DNA of 64,000 nt, taken from NCBI GenBank assembly GCA_051866635.1, contig JBJDXJ010000011.1, positions 1-64,000 of the forward strand, written 5' to 3'. Of this stretch, positions 1-17,642 are shown one piece after another. Both the position numbers and the translations under genes were made by a program. The notes beneath the pieces were generated by a model. The model had not been told where the DNA came from. It did not search any database and saw nothing but the letters and a program-made list of their open reading frames with translations. The stretch's first letter is position 1; each line of letters starts with the position of its first letter. Source of the DNA: Clostridia bacterium (GTDB taxonomy: Bacteria; Bacillota; Clostridia; UMGS1883).

Positions 1-1364
1 AACTGTTTTACTTTTCCTGATGCGATATTATCAATAATAAATCCTGCCATATTAATAGGGTCCTTTGCTGAAGAATATGGCGGAGCATATGCAAGCTCTA
101 AATACTTTAGTTCTGTTGCTTTAAGACCTGCTGAAATAGCAGTTGCAATAACATCGATTCTCTTGTCAACACCGTCATAGCCTACAATCTGTGCTCCGAG
201 TATTTGAAGGCTTGATTTGTCAAAAACAACCTTAATCGTCATAGTAGTTGCACCGGGATAATACCCTGCGTGAGATGACGGCGAAAGTACCACACTTTCA
301 AAATCATATCCAAAATCATTAGCGGCTTTTTCTGTAAGACCAACCGAGGCGGCAGTTAAATCAAATAATTTAATAACCGATGTACCCATCGAGCCTTTGT
401 ATCTGCTATTTCCTCCGCAAATATTATCTGCGGCAATTCTCCCTTGCTTATTTGCTGGACCTGCAAGAGATATAACTGCATCCTTGGCTGTTATTAAGTG
501 TTTTACTAAAACTGCATCACCAACTGCATAAATGTCAGGAATAGAAGTTTCCATTTTGTCGTTTACTACGATAGCGCCTTTTATACCAAGCTCCATATTG
601 GCATCTTTTGCAAGAGCGTTATCAGGTGCAACACCTATCGCAAGAATAACCATGTCGGTTTTTATGGGTGTATCATCCTTTAACAAAACAGAAACGCCAT
701 CATTTTCTTCTTGAAAACCTGTTACGTCACCGTTTAACTTTAAATTCAACCCTTTTGAGCGTAGCTTCGTATGTATCATAGTAGCCATATCATAATCCAA
801 AGTGTTCATAAGTTGATTTCCACGCTGCACAACTGTTACCTTGATACCCATCTCCGATAGATTTTCAGCCATTTCAAGACCGATAAAGCCGCCACCCAGC
901 ATAACAGCGGTCTTTGGTTTTGTTGTTTTGACAAAATTATGAATCTTGAGTGTATCTTCAACTGTTCTAAGTGTAAAAACTTTATCGTTATCTATACCAA
1001 CTAAATTGGGAATAACGGGTTTTGCACCGGGCGATAAAATCAATTTATCATATGTATCTTCAAATATATCATCAGTTTCAAGATTATGAACAGTTACAGT
1101 TTTTCTGTCTGCATTGATTTTGGTGACCTCGTGACGAACATTTACCTTTATACGAAATCTGTTCCAAAAGCTATTTGGAGTCTGCAAGGTAAGCTCGTCC
1201 TCGTCTTCAATTACTCCTCCGATATAATATGGCAAACCGCAGTTTGCATAGGATATAAAACCGGAGCGTTCGTAAACTGTAATATCTGCTTTTTCATCTA
1301 ACCGCCGTAATCTTGTTGCGGCAGTAGCACCGCCTGCGACTCCGCCGACTATTACAATTTTCAT
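1..1364 (-). CDS. CoA-disulfide/persulfide reductase-like FAD-dependent pyridine nucleotide-disulfide oxidoreductase (3' part outside window)
   Basis: Not in the ORF track because it runs off the edge. Manual translation from ATG 1364 gives MKIVIVGGVAGGATAATRLRRLDE...SYANCGLPYYIGG, GGGFIGLEMAE, YAVGDA and ELAYAPPYSSAKDP, which are Cdr/Npsr family motifs. Confidence 0.9.
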   Translation of the reverse strand, partial: MKIVIVGGVAGGATAATRLRRLDEKADITVYERSGFISYANCGLPYYIGGVIEDEDELTLQTPNSFWNRFRIKVNVRHEVTKINADRKTVTVHNLETDDIFEDTYDKLILSPGAKPVIPNLVGIDNDKVFTLRTVEDTLKIHNFVKTTKPKTAVMLGGGFIGLEMAENLSEMGIKVTVVQRGNQLMNTLDYDMATMIHTKLRSKGLNLKLNGDVTGFQEENDGVSVLLKDDTPIKTDMVILAIGVAPDNALAKDANMELGIKGAIVVNDKMETSIPDIYAVGDAVLVKHLITAKDAVISLAGPANKQGRIAADNICGGNSRYKGSMGTSVIKLFDLTAASVGLTEKAANDFGYDFESVVLSPSSHAGYYPGATTMTIKVVFDKSSLQILGAQIVGYDGVDKRIDVIATAISAGLKATELKYLELAYAPPYSSAKDPINMAGFIIDNIASGKVKQ

Positions 1365-6661: not shown

Positions 6662-9412
6662 TCAATACTTTTTTACAAAGAAAGATGCAAGAAGTATATT
6701 TTTACTGTCGAAAAGATATAATCTTACGTCATAATCATCAGAAAAGTCTACAATTCCCTCTGTAATGTCAACCTTTTTTAACTCATCGTCCATATAATAG
6801 CTGGCTATCACTCGTCTTGCCTTATCTGTAACAAGTATATCCATTTGTTCTTCAGAGAGATTTTCTTTAATCTCACATGTTGGAACCGGGGGTGAATAAA
6901 TCAAATTAATCTCGGCTATATTTACATATCCGCCCTTTGGTGTTTCGTACTTTATGTAGCGGTAATCTATAAACTTGCCTAAATCAACTTCGGCATATTC
7001 ATGACGGTTAAAGTCTTCCTTTTTAAATTCGTAAATTACTTCATATTCCCCGTCCTTTTGGTTACTGCCGGAAAGTACCGCTTCCCAACCTCGATATTCA
7101 AAGCCGGGTCTGCTGTTTAAAGTTACCTTGTTAAAGGGCAAATGGTTTTCCCCAAGGTCAATTGCGGTAAAACCTGTTCTGTCTGCATCTCTGTCTGAAT
7201 GGAAGAATGTTTCAATATCTCCGTCCCATGCTTTGTCGAATGTTACGTTTTCATCTCCGTCCCAGGGGTTTGTACCAAAGGGAATACCTGTCAGTTCAAT
7301 TTCAGATGCAACATATTCCACTTCAACCTGGCTTTTAGGCTCTGCAAGCTCAAAATAGAAAAGCTGATTAGCCGTTCCGTAATAACCGCCATAAACTCCC
7401 ACCTGACTTCCCGAAGCAGTTAAGTGGTTATAAACGTCAATGCTGTCTTTACTGTCCTTATTCACAATTCTGTACATACCCTTATCTTTTTCCAAAGTCC
7501 ACAGTGCTTTGTCGTTAAGCTCACTTGTTGTCAGGAAGGATTCTGTTGACAAATACTTACCTGTTTTTTCATTTCTGAAAGCATAGTAATCGCCCTTCTT
7601 TTCAATTGTCCATATCTGTGACGGTGTATTATCTCTGTCTGCAATAACAACATCGCCTTCACTTACTTTAAGTGCTCTTTCGCTTCCTGAGCCTATAATA
7701 CGAACCTTGCTGCCATTCCCCACAATGCTTATGGGGTAGACGGCCTTCATTCCGTCCTTTTCGGCTACAAAATTCAATTGAACATGAGGCTTGTTAAACA
7801 CAAATGTATTTCCTTTAAATGTATAGTCAGGCATACAGTTGCAATTTGTTTCAATGCGGATTTTAGCATCCACTTCATTACCATTTTCATCGGTAACAAC
7901 AAATTCAAGTTCCTCACCAACTAAAGCTGTCACGGTGTTGTTTTTCTCTTTTAGGATAATACTTTTATTGCCTACATTCCCTTTAACAACAACTGTTGTA
8001 ACGCTATGTGCAGGGACGGTTACTTTACTGAGGGTTTCATATTGAACCTTTTCGCAGTCCCTTGTTTTGTCTGTTACATAAACTTCAAAGTCTGTTGCAG
8101 AAGCTCCCAAATTAGCCACATCAAAGTTATACACCTTATCCGCTGTATCTGCATTTGTCACCACAAATACAACCTTATCCGTCTTTTCATTTACAGCGGA
8201 AACAATGTTATTGTAATCTGTTTTAATAAGGGTATCTCCCGGGCGGATAAACTTTGTGTACTGCATATATGCATAATACTTCTTTGTTTTGTTGACAGTG
8301 TTTTTCTCCTTGTCAAAGGAACAAATATTCCAATAGCCCGAGTCCTTATGTGCGCCGTCATATGCCATAGCCGCCGCCTGCCACATTACCCATGCGTTAG
8401 GCTCCAAGCCTCTTAAATCCTCTGTAATTTTATTTGAGAACCAAAGTGCAGGTCCCATATTGCCGGACTCTTTGCCGCCTACTGTACCGTCGCCGTCAAC
8501 CTCTGTCATATAAAGCTTTTTGCCTGCTGACTTTGCCGCATTTTTTAAATGGTCATAGCTACCTACACTATATGAATGTGTGTTTATTCGGCTAAGTGTA
8601 TCAATAGCTTCCTTGGTGTACACATTTGCGATATTTTCACCCATACGCCAAACGTTTGTTTCGTCTGCCGCGGCTACGCCCACGTTTGTAAGCCCACGTT
8701 TGTCAAGTGCCTTTCTCACTTCCATGATAAGCCTGCTGTGGTCCTCAACATCAAAGTGACAGCCTTCCTGCCATCCTTCGTAGCCCCAGTAATTTGTGTC
8801 AGACTCGTTAAAAGGCTCTAATGTATCAAACTTAATGTTATATGTATTCTGTATTCTCTGCACCGCTTCTGCAAGATACTCTGCAAAATCGTCAAATTTA
8901 TCATCAGGCAAATTATTTTCACTTGAATTATGGTTGCCCGAACTGCATCCGCTTTCCGTCATATAGTAAGGGGGAGAATTTGAAAAGGCTTCCAAAATAT
9001 CCGCACCGTACTTAACACAAAGCTGCAATGCTTTAAGCTGACCCTTATCATTCTCCAAATTCCAGTTGCCGTCTTTATCTGTAATACCGGGCATATTTCG
9101 TCCGTCAAATTCTCTTTGATGATTATGCTCCGGGTCGTCACCGCCGCCGATGTTATAACGGGCGATGTTTAAGCCGAGACCTTCTTCTTCATCGCAAAGA
9201 GCTTTCACAACACAATCCAGCTGTTCATCCGTAAGGTTTTCACCTAAATGGTGACCCCACCAACAGATAGATGTACCCCATCCTTCAAATTCCCCAAAGG
9301 GGCTTTTATTGTTAAGGTCTAATCTCACATTATAAACCTTTTCTTCTGCAAATACGCTGATGCTTGATAAAAGCATTGCAACGCACAGGATGATTGATAA
9401 AACTTTTTTCAT
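6662..9412 (-). CDS. Secreted GH30 glycoside hydrolase (endo-beta-1,6-galactanase-like) with ricin-type lectin and F5/8-like modules
   Basis: Signal peptide; FEGWGTSICWWG, LGLNIARYNIGGGD, FSNSPPYYMT, acid/base NE (EPFNE), nucleophile MTE; QxW ricin repeats; AWDGDIETFF module. Confidence 0.85.
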   Translation of the reverse strand: MKKVLSIILCVAMLLSSISVFAEEKVYNVRLDLNNKSPFGEFEGWGTSICWWGHHLGENLTDEQLDCVVKALCDEEEGLGLNIARYNIGGGDDPEHNHQREFDGRNMPGITDKDGNWNLENDKGQLKALQLCVKYGADILEAFSNSPPYYMTESGCSSGNHNSSENNLPDDKFDDFAEYLAEAVQRIQNTYNIKFDTLEPFNESDTNYWGYEGWQEGCHFDVEDHSRLIMEVRKALDKRGLTNVGVAAADETNVWRMGENIANVYTKEAIDTLSRINTHSYSVGSYDHLKNAAKSAGKKLYMTEVDGDGTVGGKESGNMGPALWFSNKITEDLRGLEPNAWVMWQAAAMAYDGAHKDSGYWNICSFDKEKNTVNKTKKYYAYMQYTKFIRPGDTLIKTDYNNIVSAVNEKTDKVVFVVTNADTADKVYNFDVANLGASATDFEVYVTDKTRDCEKVQYETLSKVTVPAHSVTTVVVKGNVGNKSIILKEKNNTVTALVGEELEFVVTDENGNEVDAKIRIETNCNCMPDYTFKGNTFVFNKPHVQLNFVAEKDGMKAVYPISIVGNGSKVRIIGSGSERALKVSEGDVVIADRDNTPSQIWTIEKKGDYYAFRNEKTGKYLSTESFLTTSELNDKALWTLEKDKGMYRIVNKDSKDSIDVYNHLTASGSQVGVYGGYYGTANQLFYFELAEPKSQVEVEYVASEIELTGIPFGTNPWDGDENVTFDKAWDGDIETFFHSDRDADRTGFTAIDLGENHLPFNKVTLNSRPGFEYRGWEAVLSGSNQKDGEYEVIYEFKKEDFNRHEYAEVDLGKFIDYRYIKYETPKGGYVNIAEINLIYSPPVPTCEIKENLSEEQMDILVTDKARRVIASYYMDDELKKVDITEGIVDFSDDYDVRLYLFDSKNILLASFFVKKY

Positions 9413-9464
9413 ATAATCTCCTACCTTTCTGCCTTAATCCTAAGGTTTAAGGGCATATATATTT

Positions 9465-9493
9465 ATTATATCACACTTGTTTTTTCTTTTCAA
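9465..9493 (-). promoter_or_regulatory. Sigma-A promoter of the GH30 gene
   Basis: TTGAAA-17 nt-TATAAT on the minus strand. Confidence 0.6.
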
Positions 9494-9666
9494 CCATAAT
9501 AAAATCGTCTTATATACTCTAGCATTGTGGATATCGTCAAATACCCTTGTAATATCAACTAATAAGGATAAAAACTTATTAAAACGGGCAAAAATATCGT
9601 CGAATTTTCTTTTCAAAGTAGACATTCAATTCTATATTTGATAAAATATAGAAGGAGGACATTCCT

Positions 9667-11466
9667 ATGAGTAATAGAAAATTATCTAAAAAAGAAGTCC
9701 TTGACTATCTGTATAAACTCCCTTTAGATGAGTTCTCTCAAATAGTCAAAGACTATGATAAACAACATAAAACTAAACTGAATGAAGAAGTTGATAAACT
9801 CTATGCATCTGAAATGGAACAAAGATTATTCAATGCAGGAGTTAATTCAACTTGCCCTCATTGCCATTCTGCTAATATTGTAAAAAGAGGAAGAACAAAC
9901 TTTCAAAGATATTTTTGTAAAGACTGTAATACCTCATTTTCATCCGTAACTAACACTTTTCTTGAAAATACTAAATTTACATGGAAAGTATGGGTAAGGC
10001 TTGTTGAAATGACTATCAATGGTTATTCTATTTCCAGAATGGTTAATGTTCTTGAAAAAGATTTTGGATATGTAGGTATTGAAGATATAACTCTACACCT
10101 TGCAAGACATAAAATATTACCTGCTATATCGCTTATACCACAACCTGTACTTACAGGCATTATCCAAATCGATGAAACATTTTTTAGAGAATCACAGAAA
10201 GCGACAAAAAAACTTATAAATTACATACCATCTGTTGCTGAATATAGGAAACCAAGATATGGAGTACAACCATCCCTCTTAGGCATAATGGGAAGTGAGT
10301 TTGCTAATGTTCCTGTTGCTGTTGATAGCACAGGTCACGTTGTTGCCAAGGTCGCTTGTTTAGGTAGATTATCCATTGAAATATTTACAGACCTATTTCA
10401 CGACCACATTGACAATCCTGCTTATATCTGTACGGATGCAAACCCCATATACAAAAGATACTGCAAATTGTTTGGAATACCGCACTATATAAGACCATCT
10501 AATTATCTTGAAATCATAAAAGAAGCAGGATATGATCAACCCCTTTATCCTGACGAAGAATTAAACAATGCAATTAGTCAGGAAAATTACAAGATACTTG
10601 AAAAACTGTATGCAAACAAACTTACTGACAGAATAGTAAACAAAGGATATATGACTTATAAGGAATTCCAACAACTCAAAAAAACCTATGGTTTAAGTTT
10701 GGGTGCTGTCAATAAACAACATAGTGAATTAAAAAAACTGATATACACAAACAAAACAAATGTATCAACCAAATATCTAAACAGATATATAAGTCTTTAT
10801 GTATTTCTTCATAATTGGTATATTGATAATGGTAAATACTCATCCTTAACTGCTGATGCTGAGGAAATACTTATATACATATTAAAAACTGTACCTGACA
10901 GTAGGTTTACTCTTAAAGATTTGAGGGAAGTTCAACTAACCTTACCCAAACCAACACGAAAATATATAGATATGCTGGCTGCTATGACTTCTGAAGCTCG
11001 TAAAGAGTTCAACAGCAAATATCTCAAATTCAATGAGGAAGATAAAGTTTTCAACTTCAAAAAGAAAGAATACCTATATGACTGTCCTCGTGCTTGGCTC
11101 GAAGAAATCTCAAGAGAAAAAGGCTTACCATATAAACATCATACTGTTCCTTTATGGAAAGTCGTCAATAATCTTCTTAAACAAGATGACATAGACATTA
11201 TCATCGTTAGACTTCTTCTCAAAGAAAAGAAAATCCACATTGAACAAGAAGATGCTGACCTATTAGAGCATTTTAAATTACCCATAGAAGATGTTTCTTA
11301 CAATGCACCTATGGATGAGGATATAAGCAAACATTACCCGCCCGTAAGAGAGGACAGCCCTCTGTATAATCCCACCGCTTACTTTACAGGTCAGCAGTTA
11401 ATGGATTTAGATGGTGGTCCAGATAACACAGGAATTGACGATGAAGAAGATACTCTACCATTCTAA
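9667..11466 (+). CDS. IS1595-family transposase (ISPna2-like DDN signature), long form
   Basis: Zn ribbon CPHC...YFCKDC, IQIDETFF, ICTD, VNKQHSELK...VSTKYLNRY; GGAGG RBS. Confidence 0.88.
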   Translation: MSNRKLSKKEVLDYLYKLPLDEFSQIVKDYDKQHKTKLNEEVDKLYASEMEQRLFNAGVNSTCPHCHSANIVKRGRTNFQRYFCKDCNTSFSSVTNTFLENTKFTWKVWVRLVEMTINGYSISRMVNVLEKDFGYVGIEDITLHLARHKILPAISLIPQPVLTGIIQIDETFFRESQKATKKLINYIPSVAEYRKPRYGVQPSLLGIMGSEFANVPVAVDSTGHVVAKVACLGRLSIEIFTDLFHDHIDNPAYICTDANPIYKRYCKLFGIPHYIRPSNYLEIIKEAGYDQPLYPDEELNNAISQENYKILEKLYANKLTDRIVNKGYMTYKEFQQLKKTYGLSLGAVNKQHSELKKLIYTNKTNVSTKYLNRYISLYVFLHNWYIDNGKYSSLTADAEEILIYILKTVPDSRFTLKDLREVQLTLPKPTRKYIDMLAAMTSEARKEFNSKYLKFNEEDKVFNFKKKEYLYDCPRAWLEEISREKGLPYKHHTVPLWKVVNNLLKQDDIDIIIVRLLLKEKKIHIEQEDADLLEHFKLPIEDVSYNAPMDEDISKHYPPVREDSPLYNPTAYFTGQQLMDLDGGPDNTGIDDEEDTLPF

Positions 11467-11500
11467 AAGGTATTACAAGGCAAAAATGGGCATAATTTTA

Positions 11501-11527
11501 GGCACTCCCGAATGTATTGGGAGTGCC
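11501..11527. terminator. Hairpin between the convergent transposase and REase genes
   Basis: GGCACTCCC...GGGAGTGCC stem. Confidence 0.6.
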
Positions 11528-11534
11528 ATGTATT

Positions 11535-12269
11535 TTAATTCATAATATCATATAAATCTATAAATTTTTTTACATTTTCCTCATTCTTTTCTCTGCCTTT
11601 ATCAAAATAATTGATATTAGCATTAGGATTTATAACTTGACTTTGTTCAAAAGCCTTACGTATATAAACATTAAACCCATGTTCAAAAGACATCTCACTA
11701 TTCTTAAACTTCTCTTTTAACTCATTCTGAAAATCATCCATAAGTTTTGTTGTTGTTTCAGAAAAAAACTTATTTAGAATAACTCTTTCGTTTTGGGGAA
11801 GTATATCCTCTCCAACAAAAAATGTTATATCCTTTTTCTCATAGCAACCAAATATATAAATAGTATTACTTTTGGGTAAATTTGAGTTCCATATAGGCTT
11901 ATTCCCATTAGAAGTAGAATATTTACTTTCTAAACAAAAAATTTTATGTTTAGTAAATACCAAAAAATCTGGAAATTGTTGACTTCCATAGGGTTGATGA
12001 ATATATATATTTGTATATTTTGGACCCAGTTCTGCCAATTCATTATCTAAAACCGCTGTGGCTAATGTATCTAAAACTTTGGGTTTTATTTTTTTTAAAT
12101 AATCAACAATAACCTTATCTTCTTTAGCTCCTACAAAGTCAAAACCTACACCTCTTAAACACCTTCTTAAACATTCTTCAAATCCTTTACCATCATTAGA
12201 ATTTGTGATTTGCTTTTTATTTTTATGTATATCATCAAAAAATAAATTCAATGGATTTATATTTCCCAT
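11535..12269 (-). CDS. Putative Type II restriction endonuclease (PD-(D/E)xK)
   Basis: FEE helix, QPYGSQQFPDFLV and LESK motifs; TGATG translational coupling to the upstream MTase. Confidence 0.75.
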   Translation of the reverse strand: MGNINPLNLFFDDIHKNKKQITNSNDGKGFEECLRRCLRGVGFDFVGAKEDKVIVDYLKKIKPKVLDTLATAVLDNELAELGPKYTNIYIHQPYGSQQFPDFLVFTKHKIFCLESKYSTSNGNKPIWNSNLPKSNTIYIFGCYEKKDITFFVGEDILPQNERVILNKFFSETTTKLMDDFQNELKEKFKNSEMSFEHGFNVYIRKAFEQSQVINPNANINYFDKGREKNEENVKKFIDLYDIMN

Positions 12270-13171
12270 CAAACACTCACACTCCCTTTCATTTTCAGTT
12301 GAACTTCTAAACGTTCATATTCTTGAATGACATCAGCCTTACCAAACCCAGGAATTGTGGTGTTTTTCAATGCCAAACTAGCAAAATCAAATAATTCAAA
12401 TATCTTTGCGGCCTCAGGATTATTTATTTTAAAGAATATGTATTGAATATTATACTTACAATCTTTCCTGTTTGTAATTACTTTTGAATAATCATAATAG
12501 CCTTGACGTGGTACACAAAAATCCCAAGGATATTCAAAATATTTACGAGCTGCTACTGTGTTGTTATATTGATATAAATCAAAGTCTGGATGTGAGGTTC
12601 TTGGTTTTTCTCTGAGTCTCATATCAGAATAACCTGAAAGCGAATATTTACTCCATATTTGAAAACAACATCTTGCTGAAAACTCTTTTCCATTAAACAC
12701 AAATGAGTTAGGAGGTAGTATTTCGTCATATATGAGCATAAATCTATCATCTATTTTGCTTTGAACACTCCATTTTCTAAATTGAACAGGAACTATAAAA
12801 GCAATAATACTACTACACAGAGCTGCTCTGTTAAAAAAATCTATTGCTAATGATGACCTATTACCAAATGGTGGATTACCAATTGTAATAACATTTGAAT
12901 AATCCCTAATATCAACCTTCAAAAAATCTCTTTTCTTTACATCAGGATGTTTAGGGTCAATATCAAATGCCACTATCTTCCTATTTTTAAATATTTTATT
13001 TGTAGCATCTATGAAAGAACCTGTACCAGCAGATGGTTCTAAAAAGATACTGTTATCAAATCTACTTGTAGTAGCTACAACATCTTTTAAAACGTTTAAG
13101 CACTTTTCAGCAATATGCTTTTGAGTATAATATTGGTCTAAGTTTAAAGATTTTCTATATGCTTCATTCAT
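12269..13171 (-). CDS. Amino (N6-A/N4-C) DNA methyltransferase, gamma-type motif order
   Basis: DQYYT (motif X), FLEPSAGTGSF (motif I), GNPPFG (motif IV), AFIVP. Start at ATG 13171 after GAGGAGG. Confidence 0.88.
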   Translation of the reverse strand: MNEAYRKSLNLDQYYTQKHIAEKCLNVLKDVVATTSRFDNSIFLEPSAGTGSFIDATNKIFKNRKIVAFDIDPKHPDVKKRDFLKVDIRDYSNVITIGNPPFGNRSSLAIDFFNRAALCSSIIAFIVPVQFRKWSVQSKIDDRFMLIYDEILPPNSFVFNGKEFSARCCFQIWSKYSLSGYSDMRLREKPRTSHPDFDLYQYNNTVAARKYFEYPWDFCVPRQGYYDYSKVITNRKDCKYNIQYIFFKINNPEAAKIFELFDFASLALKNTTIPGFGKADVIQEYERLEVQLKMKGSVSV

Positions 13172-13469
13172 AAAAAAGACCTCCTCTTTTTGTTCTCTAA
13201 AAGAAATTAGGTCTTTTTGTCCAAGAAAAATATTTTTTATCACGAATACATGGATAAGTGTATTATTTCCTCCCTCTTAATTACTCTTCAAATTTTTATA
13301 TAAACTGTCATACTTTTTATGCTCTTGTCTTCATATAAACTGTTATACTTTCACTTTTTCTATCAATATGCGATTTTTGATGCATAATTTGAAATCAAAC
13401 ATAAAAATAGGGTCTTAAATCATTGTTTAAAACCCTATAAACATACCCACTAATCATTATTTACACAAT

Positions 13470-13508
13470 AAAATAGAGCACTGAGCCATAGGCTCAGTGC
13501 TCTATTTT
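13470..13508 (-). terminator. Intrinsic terminator of the cargo nuclease gene
   Basis: Perfect stem AAAATAGAGCACTGAGCC/GGCTCAGTGCTCTATTTT overlapping the stop codon. Confidence 0.8.
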
Positions 13509-14707
13509 GCTAAATTCTGTATATTTTCATCAATGCGCTTACACACAAGTTCTGGCGTAATCTCATCCCAATAATTAAAATACACCAATTTAATACCATG
13601 CTCAACGCTTAATTTTCTTTTTTCTTCATCACGAAGTTTAACTTTTTCAAATGATTTCTCACCACCAAAGAAATCAACAGGTTCAAAATGCTGTTTTCCC
13701 TGATACTCTACTGCTATTTTTAGTTTAGAAATATAAATATCATATGACATCTGACCACCAAATGAACTATGCAAGAAGAACGGGCGATGTTGATATATAA
13801 CACCATAGTCCTTGTAATGCTTTTTGATAATCTTAAATACATACTCCTCTGTTTTCCACTTGTATTCGGGTTTACTATAAGGAATCCTCTCTATTGAAGC
13901 ATATTTCCCTAATTTAGCGTTTTCTATATGTTCTCTTACTGCGTTGTAAATTTCTATTTCTTCACGAAAATATTCTATGGGTAATGAATAATACGAAAGA
14001 TTTTCCTGCAATCTTTTAATCATTCTTGTACCTTTGTGAGAGAAAATAGTATCAACAAAATCCTCATCAACAAATTTATTATATTCTGACAACCCCATAC
14101 CATCCAATCTCTTGTTTCCATAGTATGTATTCTGAATTAAATTATCCGCAAACCTCAAAACAAATGGATGAACTTTACCCTTGATTGCATCAGCAGCATA
14201 AGATACATGACCATCTAATGCTTTCATTTCAAAAATTACTATTGTGTATGGTGTTCCTTCCCAAGCATCTAAACGCTCTTGCAAATGAACTTCAGGACAA
14301 TTCTCTATAACATAATCTGTATGCGAAAATATACCGTTTGCAAGATAATATACATTAACGCCCTTAAAACGTGCATATCTAACAAAAGTAGTATAAGCAC
14401 CTATTTCTTCTTGTACCTCATACATAAAGGGACTGTGTTTATATTTTGGCAGTAAAGTATTTGGAGTTAATTCTTCAATATCTACACCACAAACGCCCTC
14501 AGCAAGATACCATTGACGGTTTTCTTCAATATCCATAAATTCACAATTTACATCATATTTTATATACAATGCTACTGTATCTGCAAATACGACAACCATA
14601 TCATTTTCTGTAATCATGAACTTTTGCATATCAAAATCAGAGTATAGATTTAAAAATCTATCTACAACCATTTCAGCATATTCTCTTGTTAAAGGACTAT
14701 ACTCCAT
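13502..14707 (-). CDS. Hypothetical protein with C-terminal Vsr/DUF559-like PD-(D/E)xK endonuclease domain
   Basis: C-terminal SYDIYI..KIAVEYQGKQHF..FFGG..RDEEKRKL..GIKLVYF. The N-terminal ~280 aa are not recognised. Confidence 0.7.
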   Translation of the reverse strand: MEYSPLTREYAEMVVDRFLNLYSDFDMQKFMITENDMVVVFADTVALYIKYDVNCEFMDIEENRQWYLAEGVCGVDIEELTPNTLLPKYKHSPFMYEVQEEIGAYTTFVRYARFKGVNVYYLANGIFSHTDYVIENCPEVHLQERLDAWEGTPYTIVIFEMKALDGHVSYAADAIKGKVHPFVLRFADNLIQNTYYGNKRLDGMGLSEYNKFVDEDFVDTIFSHKGTRMIKRLQENLSYYSLPIEYFREEIEIYNAVREHIENAKLGKYASIERIPYSKPEYKWKTEEYVFKIIKKHYKDYGVIYQHRPFFLHSSFGGQMSYDIYISKLKIAVEYQGKQHFEPVDFFGGEKSFEKVKLRDEEKRKLSVEHGIKLVYFNYWDEITPELVCKRIDENIQNLAK

Positions 14708-14986
14708 AATATTCTCCTTAACAACATAATAACATTTTTATTTATTATATCATAATTCATCCTATTCTTCAAGACAGAAAGTTCTGAAAAGGATAAACAC
14801 ATAAAATCACTTAATGCTTTTTATTTCAGTATAAAGTTCAACGATATTTTTCAAAACTCATACAACTGTCCATCAATTTTCAACGATATTTTACTAAATA
14901 CAGGGCTAAAAAGAGAGTTCCTACCCTGTATTACGTGAAGGAACTCGATATCCTATCATCTAGAGTATATAAAAATCGTCTATACA

Positions 14987-15015
14987 TTGAAATTTATTGT
15001 TTATTATGATACAAT
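14987..15015 (+). promoter_or_regulatory. Sigma-A promoter of the GTPase-NYN gene
   Basis: TTGAAA-17 nt-TACAAT with an extended -10 TG. Confidence 0.6.
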
Positions 15016-15041
15016 AAACCCATTACGAAAGGAGGAAGAGC

Positions 15042-17642
15042 ATGAAAAAGCTTGTTATCGGTATTCTCGCCCATGTTGACAGCGGAAAAACAACGCTATC
15101 GGAAGCAATACTCTATCACACAGGTGCAATACGCCGCTTAGGAAGGGTTGACAATAAAGACACATTTTTAGACACTAATGAAATTGAACGTGAACGTGGT
15201 ATCACTATTTTTTCAAAGGAAGCACGGTTTGAAACTGAAAACACCGCCTTTACCTTGCTTGACACCCCGGGGCATGTGGATTTTTCCTCGGAAGCGGAAA
15301 GAACATTATCTGTGCTTGACTATGCAGTTTTGGTTGTTTCAGGCTCCGAAAAGGTTCAGAGTCACACTGTAACATTATGGAATTTATTAAAAAAGTACAA
15401 TGTCCCCACCTTTATTTTCGTAAACAAAATGGATATTTCCCATTATTCGGAAGAGGAAATTTTAACCTCTCTTACAACAGAGTTGGATATTGGCTGTGTT
15501 GATTTTTCCCATATAGATTACGAAGCTGTCAGTATGTGCGACGAAATACTTTTGAACCTATACCTTGAAGAGGGTGAACTTACAAAAAAGGATATTATTT
15601 ACGGCATTAAACGAAGAAGTATATTCCCTGTCTGTTTTGGTTCGGCATTAAAAAGCCAAGGCATAGCAGAACTTTTAAATTTACTTGATGTATACACGGC
15701 AGAACCCTTTAAAACAGACTCTTTCGGATGCAGGGTTTTTAAAATATCAGAGGACGATAAGGGTAACCGCCTTACACATATGAAAATAACAGGCGGTACT
15801 CTTACCCCTAAAACTGCACTTTCCACATCTTCTTGGGAAGAAAAGGTCAATGAAATCCGTATATATTCAGGTGCAAAGTATAAAAGCGTTGCATTGGTAA
15901 CACAGGGTGATGTATGCACAGTAACCGGGCTTACAAAAACCTTCCCCGGTGAAGGTTTGGGGTTTGAAAAAACTGCCGCCTCCCTTTCACAGACACCTCT
16001 TTTCAGCTACAGTGTTATCCTTCCCGATGGTGTTGACCCCCTTCATGCTTTAGGCACATTAAAGAAACTTGAAGAAGAGGAAACGGAACTAAAAATCACA
16101 TGGAACGAACAGACAAAGGAAATTGAATTTTACCTTATGGGGGAAGTTCAGCTTGAAGTATTAAAAAAGATTATTGCATCACGTTTTAATATGGAGGTTG
16201 ACTTTTCAAAGGGCAGTATCATATACAAGGAAACCATACAAAACACAGTTGAAGGCGTTGGTCATTACGAACCACTTCGCCACTATGCGGAGGTTCATCT
16301 TCGCATTGAGCCGGGCAAGGAAGGTACAGGCCTTGTTTTTGACACCGACTGCAGTGAAGAAGTTTTAGAGAGAAACTGGCAAAACCTTATTCTGACCCAC
16401 CTTAAAGAAAAGACACACAAGGGTGTACTTACGGGCTCACCAATCACTGATATGAAAATCACCTTAGTTAGCGGTAAAGCACACTTAAAGCATACAGAGG
16501 GCGGTGATTTCAGGCAGGCAACTTACCGTGCAGTAAGACAAGGCTTAATGCAAGCTGAAAGCGTTCTTTTAGAGCCATGGTATGATTTTACCATAACTCT
16601 CCCATCTCAATTTGTGGGCAGAGCCATGACCGATATAACAGCCATGGGAGGAACTGTTTCAGCCCCCGAAATGTTAGACGCAGACACAAGCACTATTTCA
16701 GGCAGAGCACCCATTTCAGGTATGCACGGGTACGATATGGAATTGACCGCATACACAAAGGGATTGGGCAGGCTGTCCTGTTCCTTTTCAGGCTACAGTA
16801 AATGCCCTAATCAGGAGGAGATCGTGGCAAAAAAGGCATATGACCCTGAAGGTGATTTATATAACTCCCCCGACTCTGTTTTCTGTGCCCAAGGTGCAGG
16901 CTTCAGCGTAAAATGGTATGATGTTGAAAAATATATGCACCTTGCAAAAGAAAAAACCCCTGAACGCATTTCCAGGGCGACAACCCATGGCGGAAAAAGG
17001 GGCGTTATTGACGAAGATGAGCTGATTAAAGTTTTCGAGGCGACTTACGGCAAAATCGAGCGTAAATTGCCTAACCAAATGAAAACTCCCAAAAAAGAGC
17101 TTGGGGATTACGTGCCAAAAAACAAAAAACCAAAAGGCAGCGATTACCTTTTGATTGACGGCTACAACGTTATATTTTCTGACGATGAATTGAAAAAGGC
17201 GGCACATGCAAGTTTGGAAGATGCCCGTAAAATGCTCATTGACAAAGCAATAATATATAACAGCTTAAAGCAAATTGAAGTTATAGTTGTATTTGATGCC
17301 TACCGTGTTAAGGGGCAAGGCAGTATAGAACAACATTCAAACATAAGCGTTGTATATACAAAAGAGGCTGAAACTGCCGACAGCTACATTGAAAAGGTCA
17401 CCCATGAGCTTAGTAAAAACCACCGTGTGCGTGTTGCCACAAGCGACAATTTAGAGCAGATTATTATATTGGGTAACAACGCCCTGCGTATGACAGCACG
17501 TGAATTTTTCGACGAGCTTAATGAGGCAGAAATGGAAATTGCCGCTTATATCCAACGAAATAATATAACGAATCAAGACATTTCAAACACGGTTTTATCG
17601 AAAGAAATTTTAGAAAAAATCACAAATCCGCAGAATGATTAG
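15042..17642 (+). CDS. TetM/EF-G-like translational GTPase fused to C-terminal NYN (YacP/Rae1-like) RNase domain
   Basis: AHVDSGKTT, ERERGITI, DTPGHVDF, NKMD and EF-G domains III-V, then LLIDGYN...VVFDAY...ETADSYIEK...VATSDNLEQ. Confidence 0.88.
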   Translation: MKKLVIGILAHVDSGKTTLSEAILYHTGAIRRLGRVDNKDTFLDTNEIERERGITIFSKEARFETENTAFTLLDTPGHVDFSSEAERTLSVLDYAVLVVSGSEKVQSHTVTLWNLLKKYNVPTFIFVNKMDISHYSEEEILTSLTTELDIGCVDFSHIDYEAVSMCDEILLNLYLEEGELTKKDIIYGIKRRSIFPVCFGSALKSQGIAELLNLLDVYTAEPFKTDSFGCRVFKISEDDKGNRLTHMKITGGTLTPKTALSTSSWEEKVNEIRIYSGAKYKSVALVTQGDVCTVTGLTKTFPGEGLGFEKTAASLSQTPLFSYSVILPDGVDPLHALGTLKKLEEEETELKITWNEQTKEIEFYLMGEVQLEVLKKIIASRFNMEVDFSKGSIIYKETIQNTVEGVGHYEPLRHYAEVHLRIEPGKEGTGLVFDTDCSEEVLERNWQNLILTHLKEKTHKGVLTGSPITDMKITLVSGKAHLKHTEGGDFRQATYRAVRQGLMQAESVLLEPWYDFTITLPSQFVGRAMTDITAMGGTVSAPEMLDADTSTISGRAPISGMHGYDMELTAYTKGLGRLSCSFSGYSKCPNQEEIVAKKAYDPEGDLYNSPDSVFCAQGAGFSVKWYDVEKYMHLAKEKTPERISRATTHGGKRGVIDEDELIKVFEATYGKIERKLPNQMKTPKKELGDYVPKNKKPKGSDYLLIDGYNVIFSDDELKKAAHASLEDARKMLIDKAIIYNSLKQIEVIVVFDAYRVKGQGSIEQHSNISVVYTKEAETADSYIEKVTHELSKNHRVRVATSDNLEQIIILGNNALRMTAREFFDELNEAEMEIAAYIQRNNITNQDISNTVLSKEILEKITNPQND

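Follow-up and report, generated by a model that had tools for sequence, protein, structure and literature searches.

The first 64,000 nucleotides of contig JBJDXJ010000011.1 from a Clostridia bacterium (assembly GCA_051866635.1), here called the window, carry a complete mobile element of 5,463 bp at positions 9510-14972 which, on the evidence of its sequence, is an autonomous cargo transposon of a divergent IS1595 clade with long transposases. Comparison with its relatives makes us highly confident that this clade inserts in one orientation, with the left (transposase-proximal) end some 16 bp upstream of a sigma-A-type promoter's -35 box; the insertion leaves the targeted promoter and the gene behind it undamaged, and both point away from the element. 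The fuller explanation that we prefer, in which promoter-directed, oriented insertion of an IS1595-clade cargo transposon is combined with placement by RNA polymerase and with a restriction-modification (RM) pair as cargo, is likely as a whole.

Insertion upstream of host promoters

One scan of GTDB genomes with the window transposase returned 57 clade loci from Clostridia, streptococci, Fusobacteriota and others, mainly Bacillota. Twenty of the 57 yielded TTATAT-type ends flanked by an 8-bp duplication in a search run without any assumed end motif; a repeat pair at L053 was dropped for ends unlike those of the family, and L004, with its ends at contig edges and no flank, was left out. A profile built from these ends located left ends in 41 of the 57 loci and by itself bounded six more elements (L016, L017, L022, L030, L035 and L057), all with perfect 8-9-bp duplications. 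The 27 bounded elements, that of the window included, span 1.3-11.9 kb and all have perfect duplications (8 bp in 22, 9 bp in 5) that differ from one another, while the two ends of an element match at 17-23 of 26 positions. Controls were 18 ordinary IS1595 loci from plasmids and one phage, with ends defined in 17 and both ends in 12, and these ends begin with GGC in 17 of the 18 loci. We take the controls ISSag10, ISCco2, ISBwe1, ISBth19 and ISClsp5 to belong to the ISPna2-type group.

Read outward from the left end, the host flanks of the clade show TTGACA at positions 17-22 and TG-n-TATAAT at 37-45, and the right flanks show nothing. With a promoter defined as TTGACA-16..18-TATAAT, at least 9 of 12 positions matching and the -35 box starting 16-18 nt outside the end, 29 of 41 left flanks carry one (25 at exactly 17) against 1 of 31 right flanks, and the controls have 1 in 17 left and 0 in 12 right flanks (1/29 overall; Fisher p 1.6e-9 and 4.5e-9). 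When at least 10 of 12 matches are demanded, 25 left flanks of the clade are retained and no right flank of the clade or flank of a control on either side. Shuffling gave a mean of 0.88 and a maximum of 5 in 2000 trials, other windows of the same flanks averaged 1.2% matches, and 1.6-1.9% of 3447 random intergenic host positions gave a match. The signal persisted when related loci were thinned (26 of 35 clusters at 90%, 16 of 21 at 70%), and the flanks are mutually unrelated, being at most 34/60 identical. A TG extension of the -10 box is present at 29 of the 41 left-flank sites, and an outward open reading frame (ORF) begins within 500 nt in 34/41 left flanks versus 9/27 right flanks. The genes downstream of the targeted promoters are diverse and often housekeeping (among them rpsB, rpsL, rplU, efp, two thrS-like genes, glyA, two DEAD helicases, yajC and CorA), with a Pfam match in 25 of 32. 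An outward promoter belonging to the element was considered and rejected, since both boxes fall beyond the duplication, in mutually unrelated flanks, and a single conserved target gene was likewise rejected, as the downstream genes differ.

In the window, where promoter calls are consensus matches from a scan of 9350-15100, the promoter of a GH30 gene gave the best match of that interval (11/12); it points away from the element, whose left end is exactly 16 bp from the -35 box. A second, divergent host promoter 14 bp from the right end was also spared by the insertion.

Selection against hits in genes and promoters could in principle leave such a pattern after random or loosely AT-rich insertion, given that the sites are genomic survivors and that DNA between divergent genes is promoter-rich, as in the window with its promoters on both sides. 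It does not, however, predict an offset held to within 1 bp or the one-sidedness of the promoters, and the equally selected IS1595 controls and the random intergenic positions (<2%) lack the pattern. A preference for AT is opposed by the duplications, which are less AT-rich in the clade (0.70) than in the controls (0.93), and we regard this explanation as very improbable. The control value agrees with the low-specificity, AT-preferring target choice described for the IS1595 elements MTnSag1 and tISCpe8 (PMC5704250).

Several points weigh against promoter targeting as a rule of the whole clade. Twelve of the 41 left flanks fall below the promoter threshold, L024 and L027 have no promoter on either side, and L042 has its promoter on the right. 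The left end was not definable by the profile in 16 of the 57 loci, the basal L049-L054 among them, and the targeting figures exclude these. The promoters are predicted from consensus matches, all sites are survivors shaped by selection, and the controls, six of which are ISSag10-type insertions, come from plasmids and one phage and sample one part of IS1595.

Some individual loci add detail. At L042:18941 the ends are nearly symmetric (23/26) and the promoter stands on the right; L027, L029 and L043 are equally symmetric and show no such switch. End-like sequences at promoter distance in L028, L038 and L041 were found via the promoter and hence not counted, and the left ends at L011:9835, L028:2844 and L041:9843 start with CCA rather than TTA, still at promoter distance. 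At L057:7234-8569 a non-autonomous derivative of 1.3 kb sits at promoter distance; its ends are intact, it is flanked by an 8-bp duplication, and it carries a GNAT gene.

The boundaries of the window element are virtually certain. The 8-bp target duplication AAATCGTC abuts both element ends, which carry the perfect 13-bp inverted repeat TTATATACTCTAG and agree at 20 of 26 nucleotides; within the window this is the sole pair of an 8-bp duplication and a 13-bp inverted repeat (at most one mismatch, 0.2-20 kb apart). The preliminary description had left the duplication at 8 or 10 bp. The shorter length stands and the longer was rejected, because family ends begin with TTATAT (position 1 is T in 41 of 42 ends) and because bounded relatives share these ends and have duplications of 8 or 9 bp. 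Its identification of a complete IS1595-family cargo transposon was borne out by the inverted repeats, the duplication, the homology of the transposase and the bounded relatives, and the ORFs of an intact transposase and three opposite-strand passengers were confirmed. The element lies between divergent host genes, GH30 and EF-G-like/NYN, and both of its ends contain ATATC(G/A) repeats spaced at about multiples of 21 bp. GC content is 0.31 in the element and 0.40 in the host, and at third codon positions 0.17-0.25 in the four element genes and 0.38-0.43 in four host genes. Intact ORFs, a perfect duplication and foreign GC make a recent arrival a candidate reading. There is no second copy of the element within the 64-kb window, and an Rfam scan of the window at gathering scores returned nothing. 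The features are as follows.

9465-9493, minus strand: targeted host sigma-A-type promoter of the GH30 gene (-35 TTGAAA 9493-9488, 17-nt spacer, TG-extended -10 TATAAT 9470-9465)
9502-9509: left target duplication, 8 bp
9510-9610, plus strand: left end, with terminal inverted repeat (13 bp perfect, 20/26) and subterminal ATATC(G/A) repeats at offsets 21, 42 and 84
9619-9647, plus strand: candidate transposase promoter TAGACA-17-TAAAAT with TG, a consensus match alone
9667-11466, plus strand: transposase, 599 aa (NCBIfam, alignment, fold model, Rho_N)
11501-11527: terminator-like hairpin where the transposase and nuclease genes converge
11535-12272, minus strand: probable type II restriction endonuclease, 244-245 aa (PD-(D/E)XK, EcoRV/HincII-like fold)
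12269-13171, minus strand: amino-methyltransferase, 300 aa from ATG 13171 (PADLOC MTase_II PDLC03274, motifs); the longest ORF starts at GTG 13243, 324 aa
13407-13508: two hairpins separating the third passenger from the RM pair (13407-13438 terminator-like on the minus strand, 13470-13508 a near-perfect palindrome)
13502-14707, minus strand: uncharacterised 401-aa protein with a Vsr/DUF559-like C-terminal nuclease domain
14744-14772, minus strand: candidate internal cargo promoter TTGAAG-17-TATAAT with TG, a consensus match alone
14835-14972, minus strand: right end, with terminal inverted repeat and subterminal ATATCG repeats at offsets 21, 83 and 125
14973-14980: right target duplication
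14987-15015, plus strand: second, divergent host promoter TTGAAA-17-TACAAT with TG, of the EF-G-like/NYN gene, 14 bp from the right end and intact

The transposase and its placement at promoters

The single transposase gene of the element, as is usual in IS1595, codes for a protein that matches NCBIfam NF033547 (IS1595) at E 4.8e-20. The score of 72.4 bits is just below the cut-off of 75 and speaks against the family assignment, a shortfall probably owed to a helical insert in the protein. The IS1/IS1595 zinc ribbon NF050000 scores 37.5 bits, above its cut-off of 28, and is formed by C63/C66/C84/C87, the first two invariant and the last two conserved in at least 90% of 43 aligned sequences. 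The catalytic residues D169, D257 and N349 are invariant in 43/43 and align with those of control IS1595 transposases; K356 was also noted. Pfam PF12762 gave no match to the window transposase, though one is precomputed for several homologues. A protein search found 192 relatives, and those among the 120 listed are mostly 500-610 aa long and almost all unnamed, while tblastn of plasmid and phage collections returned short IS1595 relatives only (87 and 2 records, none with at least 80% coverage). In a quick unrooted tree with no outgroup, 42 family rows split from 10 control rows on a long branch (SH-aLRT 100).

The structure model (pLDDT 84.7) contains a predicted integrase-like/RNase H core (best Z 12.8, rmsd 2.5, 123 aligned) and two clade-specific additions, the helical insert of about 65 aa (~278-345) between the second and third catalytic residues and a C-terminal extension (425-540, some 115 aa) that includes a Rho_N/SAP-like domain at ~456-522. 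Both are missing from 10 of 10 aligned control transposases, the five displayed being 330-345 aa each. Rho_N is matched by 8 of 35 family members at E<=0.1, and residues 456-533 match the FAN1 fold (Z 7.5, rmsd 2.4, 60 aligned). A profile of the extension domain has 164 matches in 1.84 billion representatives; of the 150 listed, 41 reach 450 aa or more and 35 of these contain the family core as well, and the core-less matches include 4/4 mid-length proteins tested that are Rho_N repeat proteins and two long ones without a Rho_N match.

Two further variations concern the C-terminus. An acidic tail ending in LPF (window 11425-11466) occurs in 14 of the 120 listed homologues, all of a ~600-aa subclade (P0001-P0026); we take it to resemble the SSB C-terminal tail, and it might recruit host repair proteins. 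In transposases of 740-1000 aa (P0300, P0306, P0314, P0317 and P0335, with P0302 and P0313 partial) a DEDDh (RNase_T) exonuclease is fused after the Rho_N-like domain. The tail and the fused exonuclease are possibly two routes that bring end-processing or repair activity to the site.

If the transposase were really of the Mutator type (ISLre2/TnGBS), promoter targeting would be inherited and already known. The idea was raised by Foldseek, which ranked the transposase of ISCth4, presumably an IS256/Mutator element, as the best match (E 2e-6, TM 0.27-0.38), and the promoter spacing is the same. The Mutators of PMC3942029 likewise have a helical insert that separates their second catalytic residue from the third. 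However, Pfam Transposase_mut gave no match at E<=0.1 where NCBIfam IS1595 and the zinc ribbon did, and the 30 listed plasmid tblastn matches are IS1595-annotated or unannotated. The protein can be aligned over its whole length with ISSag10/ISCco2-type proteins, and the N..H...K and STKY motifs are shared; no C/D-x2-H follows D257 (C266 and H273 are six residues apart), the third catalytic residue is N349, and in the VIA structure search ISCth4 ranks only 21st (Z 9.2), below integrases. Mutator identity was rejected on sequence, is largely refuted and seems to us scarcely tenable.

In the mechanism that we propose for the IS1595-clade element, the transposase would pair both ends, probably via a circular intermediate by analogy with MTnSag1 (PMC5704250), and RNA polymerase holoenzyme bound at the promoter, not just the -35 sequence, would decide where it is placed. 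The helical insert, the Rho_N/SAP-like extension or both would serve as the targeting module, and the asymmetry of the ends would set the orientation of insertion. We infer placement by the sigma-A polymerase because 8 of 12 sites where the -35 box matches poorly (<=3/6) still have a -10 box of at least 5/6 at offset 39-41, against a background of ~5%, and because the clade alone has the added domains; polymerase contact appears to us reasonably probable. The C-terminal domains of the polymerase alpha subunits (alpha-CTD) bind the upstream zone of promoters, and since the duplication by our reckoning falls in this zone, alpha-CTD or sigma region 4 would be candidate contacts. When residues 270-545 of the transposase were modelled together with a stand-in sigma-A (SIGA_CLOAB 200-378, no alignment), the prediction gave no answer for or against a contact (score 0.00, with the fold of the partner uncertain). 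A look for sigma-A or RpoA motifs in the window and the fetched loci found none, which left no native partner.

Direct reading of promoter DNA by the Rho_N/SAP-like domain, through the hexamers or DNA shape and with no polymerase contact, would fit a sharply fixed -35 offset and an added domain whose fold class (Rho_N, FAN1) binds nucleic acids. Against it stand the sites with a poor -35 box that keep their spacing to a good extended -10 at 39-41 bp, a reach that would suit a bound holoenzyme better than a transposase reading beside its own cut, and we consider direct read-out distinctly unlikely.

Passenger genes and cargo

The three passenger ORFs of the window element (11535-12272, 12269-13243 and 13502-14707) all lie on the minus strand. 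The methyltransferase named in the preliminary description matches PADLOC MTase_II PDLC03274 at E 3.8e-63 and has S-adenosylmethionine-binding and catalytic motifs, with motif I preceding NPPF; it probably methylates adenine (m6A), and its start is probably ATG 13171 (300 aa), which has the better ribosome-binding site. The ATG of the nuclease gene overlaps the methyltransferase stop codon, and the two genes are intact and translationally coupled.

The partner nuclease had been called a restriction enzyme, and what holds is a restriction-enzyme-like protein with a PD-(D/E)XK site, P101-D102...E115-x-K117, invariant in 12 of 12 sequences, the window's own included, which are all the homologues detectable. 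The fold list of its model (pLDDT 89.2) is dominated by restriction enzymes and resolvases, with matches to EcoRV (Z 7.2, rmsd 3.2, 123 aligned) and HincII (Z 6.5; Atlas HincII 0.88). On the other side, the EcoRV match is tied with an unrelated top row, Rep15 (Z 7.3), no match was found in PADLOC or another hidden Markov model library or with Foldseek at E<=0.001, and PDB sequence searches with both nucleases gave chance-like matches only. Because the top fold row is unrelated and the libraries name nothing, the 245-aa protein is best called a probable type II restriction endonuclease. The methyltransferase and nuclease would with good probability form a working RM pair, which might protect against phage and may stabilise the element; the preliminary description had suggested post-segregational killing as a possible route to such stability. 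Palindrome avoidance did not identify the site of this pair, GGCC, GATC, GCGC, CCGG and CTAG all being low in the host. The strong avoidance of these five palindromes in the host part of the window suggests several host RM systems.

The third passenger, a 401-aa protein, had been proposed as a defence nuclease. The nuclease part of this proposal is supported by PHROG matches to residues ~250-396, an Atlas lead to DUF559 at 0.89 and, with 269 homologues, the invariance of E287/E288, D323 and E334-Y-Q-G-x-Q-H340 in an alignment of 30; Pfam offered nothing useful for the family, and the search of the PADLOC defence library gave no significant match, so that a role in defence is rather doubtful. 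No relative of the three window passengers was found by tblastn among the fetched family loci. A 64% homologue of the window nuclease (P0125) and a family transposase (P0026) apparently share a 10,919-bp NCBI contig, perhaps the same type of element elsewhere.

The cataloguing of cargo between homologous inverted repeats that had been suggested at the outset was carried out on 70 passenger ORFs from 26 bounded relatives (4 transposase fragments excluded) and found RM to be a recurring theme, with methyltransferase or RM genes in 13 of 26 relatives and thus 14/27 with the window. They comprise type II (HindIII-like, IceA-associated, EcoRI-type methyltransferase, Dam-like with NOV_C), type IIG with specificity subunits, and type III systems. 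Cargo in the clade, read from these gene contents, is freely exchanged and often an RM system. Of the 14 elements, 9 come from Streptococcus and 3 have near-identical cargo, which counts against this reading.

Passengers that are neutral or selfish, an addiction-type RM pair and a decayed or phage-derived nuclease rather than an anti-phage cassette, would be in keeping with the 13 of 27 bounded elements without RM genes (which hold GNAT, GrpB, SLH, ECF sigma, AAA, nested elements, unknown genes or nothing), with the Atlas clusters nearest to the nuclease, ~90% viral hypothetical proteins, and with the lack of a defence-library match for the third gene. The coupled genes with invariant catalytic residues and the recurrence in the family of RM systems, no fewer than 10 distinct ones from types II, IIG and III, argue the other way, and this alternative is in our view unlikely.

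Nested mobile DNA was seen in two relatives, a tyrosine-integrase/coupling-protein module at L020:9624-21492 and, next to a type III RM system at L016:5079-14586, fragments of IS256 and TnpB. Ten elements (L008, L009, L010, L012, L014, L018, L019, L030, L036 and L044) have in common a small winged-helix gene near the right end, before different RM operons, which is possibly an RM controller. Outside the element, the product of window 15042-17642 joins an EF-G/TetM-like GTPase to a YacP-like NYN nuclease domain and scores below all tetracycline-protection cut-offs.

Comparison with known systems

The passenger-carrying IS1595 elements of the ISPna2 type (tIS: MTnSag1/ISSag10, tISCpe8, ISCco2, ISBwe1, ISBth19, ISClsp5) share with the clade a zinc ribbon, a D-D-N core, a single transposase, imperfect inverted ends of ~25 bp, an 8-bp duplication and passengers downstream of the transposase (PMC5704250, PMC8101967); an N-terminal zinc finger is described in all IS1595 groups but IS1016 (PMC8101967). 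Membership of the ISPna2 group, as assumed in the preliminary description, has nevertheless to be given up. Clade ends begin with TTATAT and theirs with GGC, the transposases are 530-600 aa long and theirs 330-345 (~340 aa), identity is 26-34% over at most 62% of the protein, and the clade forms a separate long branch and alone has the insert and the C-terminal extension. In addition, clade insertion is promoter-directed and its cargo often RM, whereas theirs is directed to AT-rich, low-specificity targets and carries resistance genes.

RM genes between inverted repeats with an 8-bp duplication are also known from the transposon-like units of Furuta et al. 2010 (PMC2853133), which have no intact transposase or a likely inactivated one, unlike the intact clade transposase that is found repeatedly with different RM systems. 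With EcoRV/HincII-like type II enzymes and their amino-methyltransferases the window pair shares a PD-(D/E)XK core, the predicted fold and a coupled methyltransferase gene, at ~12% identity to the nuclease.

Target choice decides whether a transposon harms its host, and a fixed insertion upstream of promoters is a way of sparing host genes. An apparent second origin of this behaviour in IS1595, with delimited added domains missing in close relatives, makes the polymerase-contact model testable by deletion and domain swap. If the model is true, the clade would offer a compact integration system in which one protein, with an identifiable targeting domain, finds the promoter. The clade could also supply a non-disruptive integration tool for Bacillota, and it acts as a carrier by which RM systems are shuffled among streptococci, fusobacteria and the Clostridia of gut and rumen.

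The closest parallel is with TnGBS, ISLre2 and some ISKra4 elements, Mutator-like (p-MULT3/p-MULT4), which insert 15-17 bp upstream of sigma-A -35 boxes and for which RNA-polymerase contact was proposed as the model of TnGBS targeting (PMC3942029, whose supplementary table S2 concerns Mutators). Oriented insertion at the same spacing is common to both, polymerase contact is a proposal in both, and orientation is tied to end asymmetry, the clade's L042 (23/26) having its promoter on the opposite side. However, the clade transposase is from an unrelated family with a different candidate targeting module, its transposase-proximal left end faces the promoter where in PMC3942029 it is IR-right, and the window element, unlike TnGBS, has no conjugation genes. 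In the accessible parts of PMC9208149 and bioRxiv 10.1101/2025.07.22.666184 there is no report of promoter targeting by IS1595, and in the accessible literature, with most subscription papers, ISfinder and TnCentral outside its scope, promoter-relative insertion is described for Mutator-type TnGBS/ISLre2/ISKra4 only. Promoter-directed insertion in the IS1595 clade thus looks like an independent origin, convergent with Mutator-type elements on the same 16-bp spacing. Whether this unnamed IS1595 group evolved polymerase-guided transposition independently of TnGBS/ISLre2, with a Rho-N/SAP-like module that docks on the sigma-A holoenzyme at active promoters and so brings a changing RM arsenal to a harmless site 16 bp ahead of the -35 box, seems to us evenly balanced. 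An IS1595 cargo transposon with a probable RM pair is of an already known kind; what is apparently new is the fixed-distance insertion upstream of promoters by an IS1595 clade with distinct added domains.

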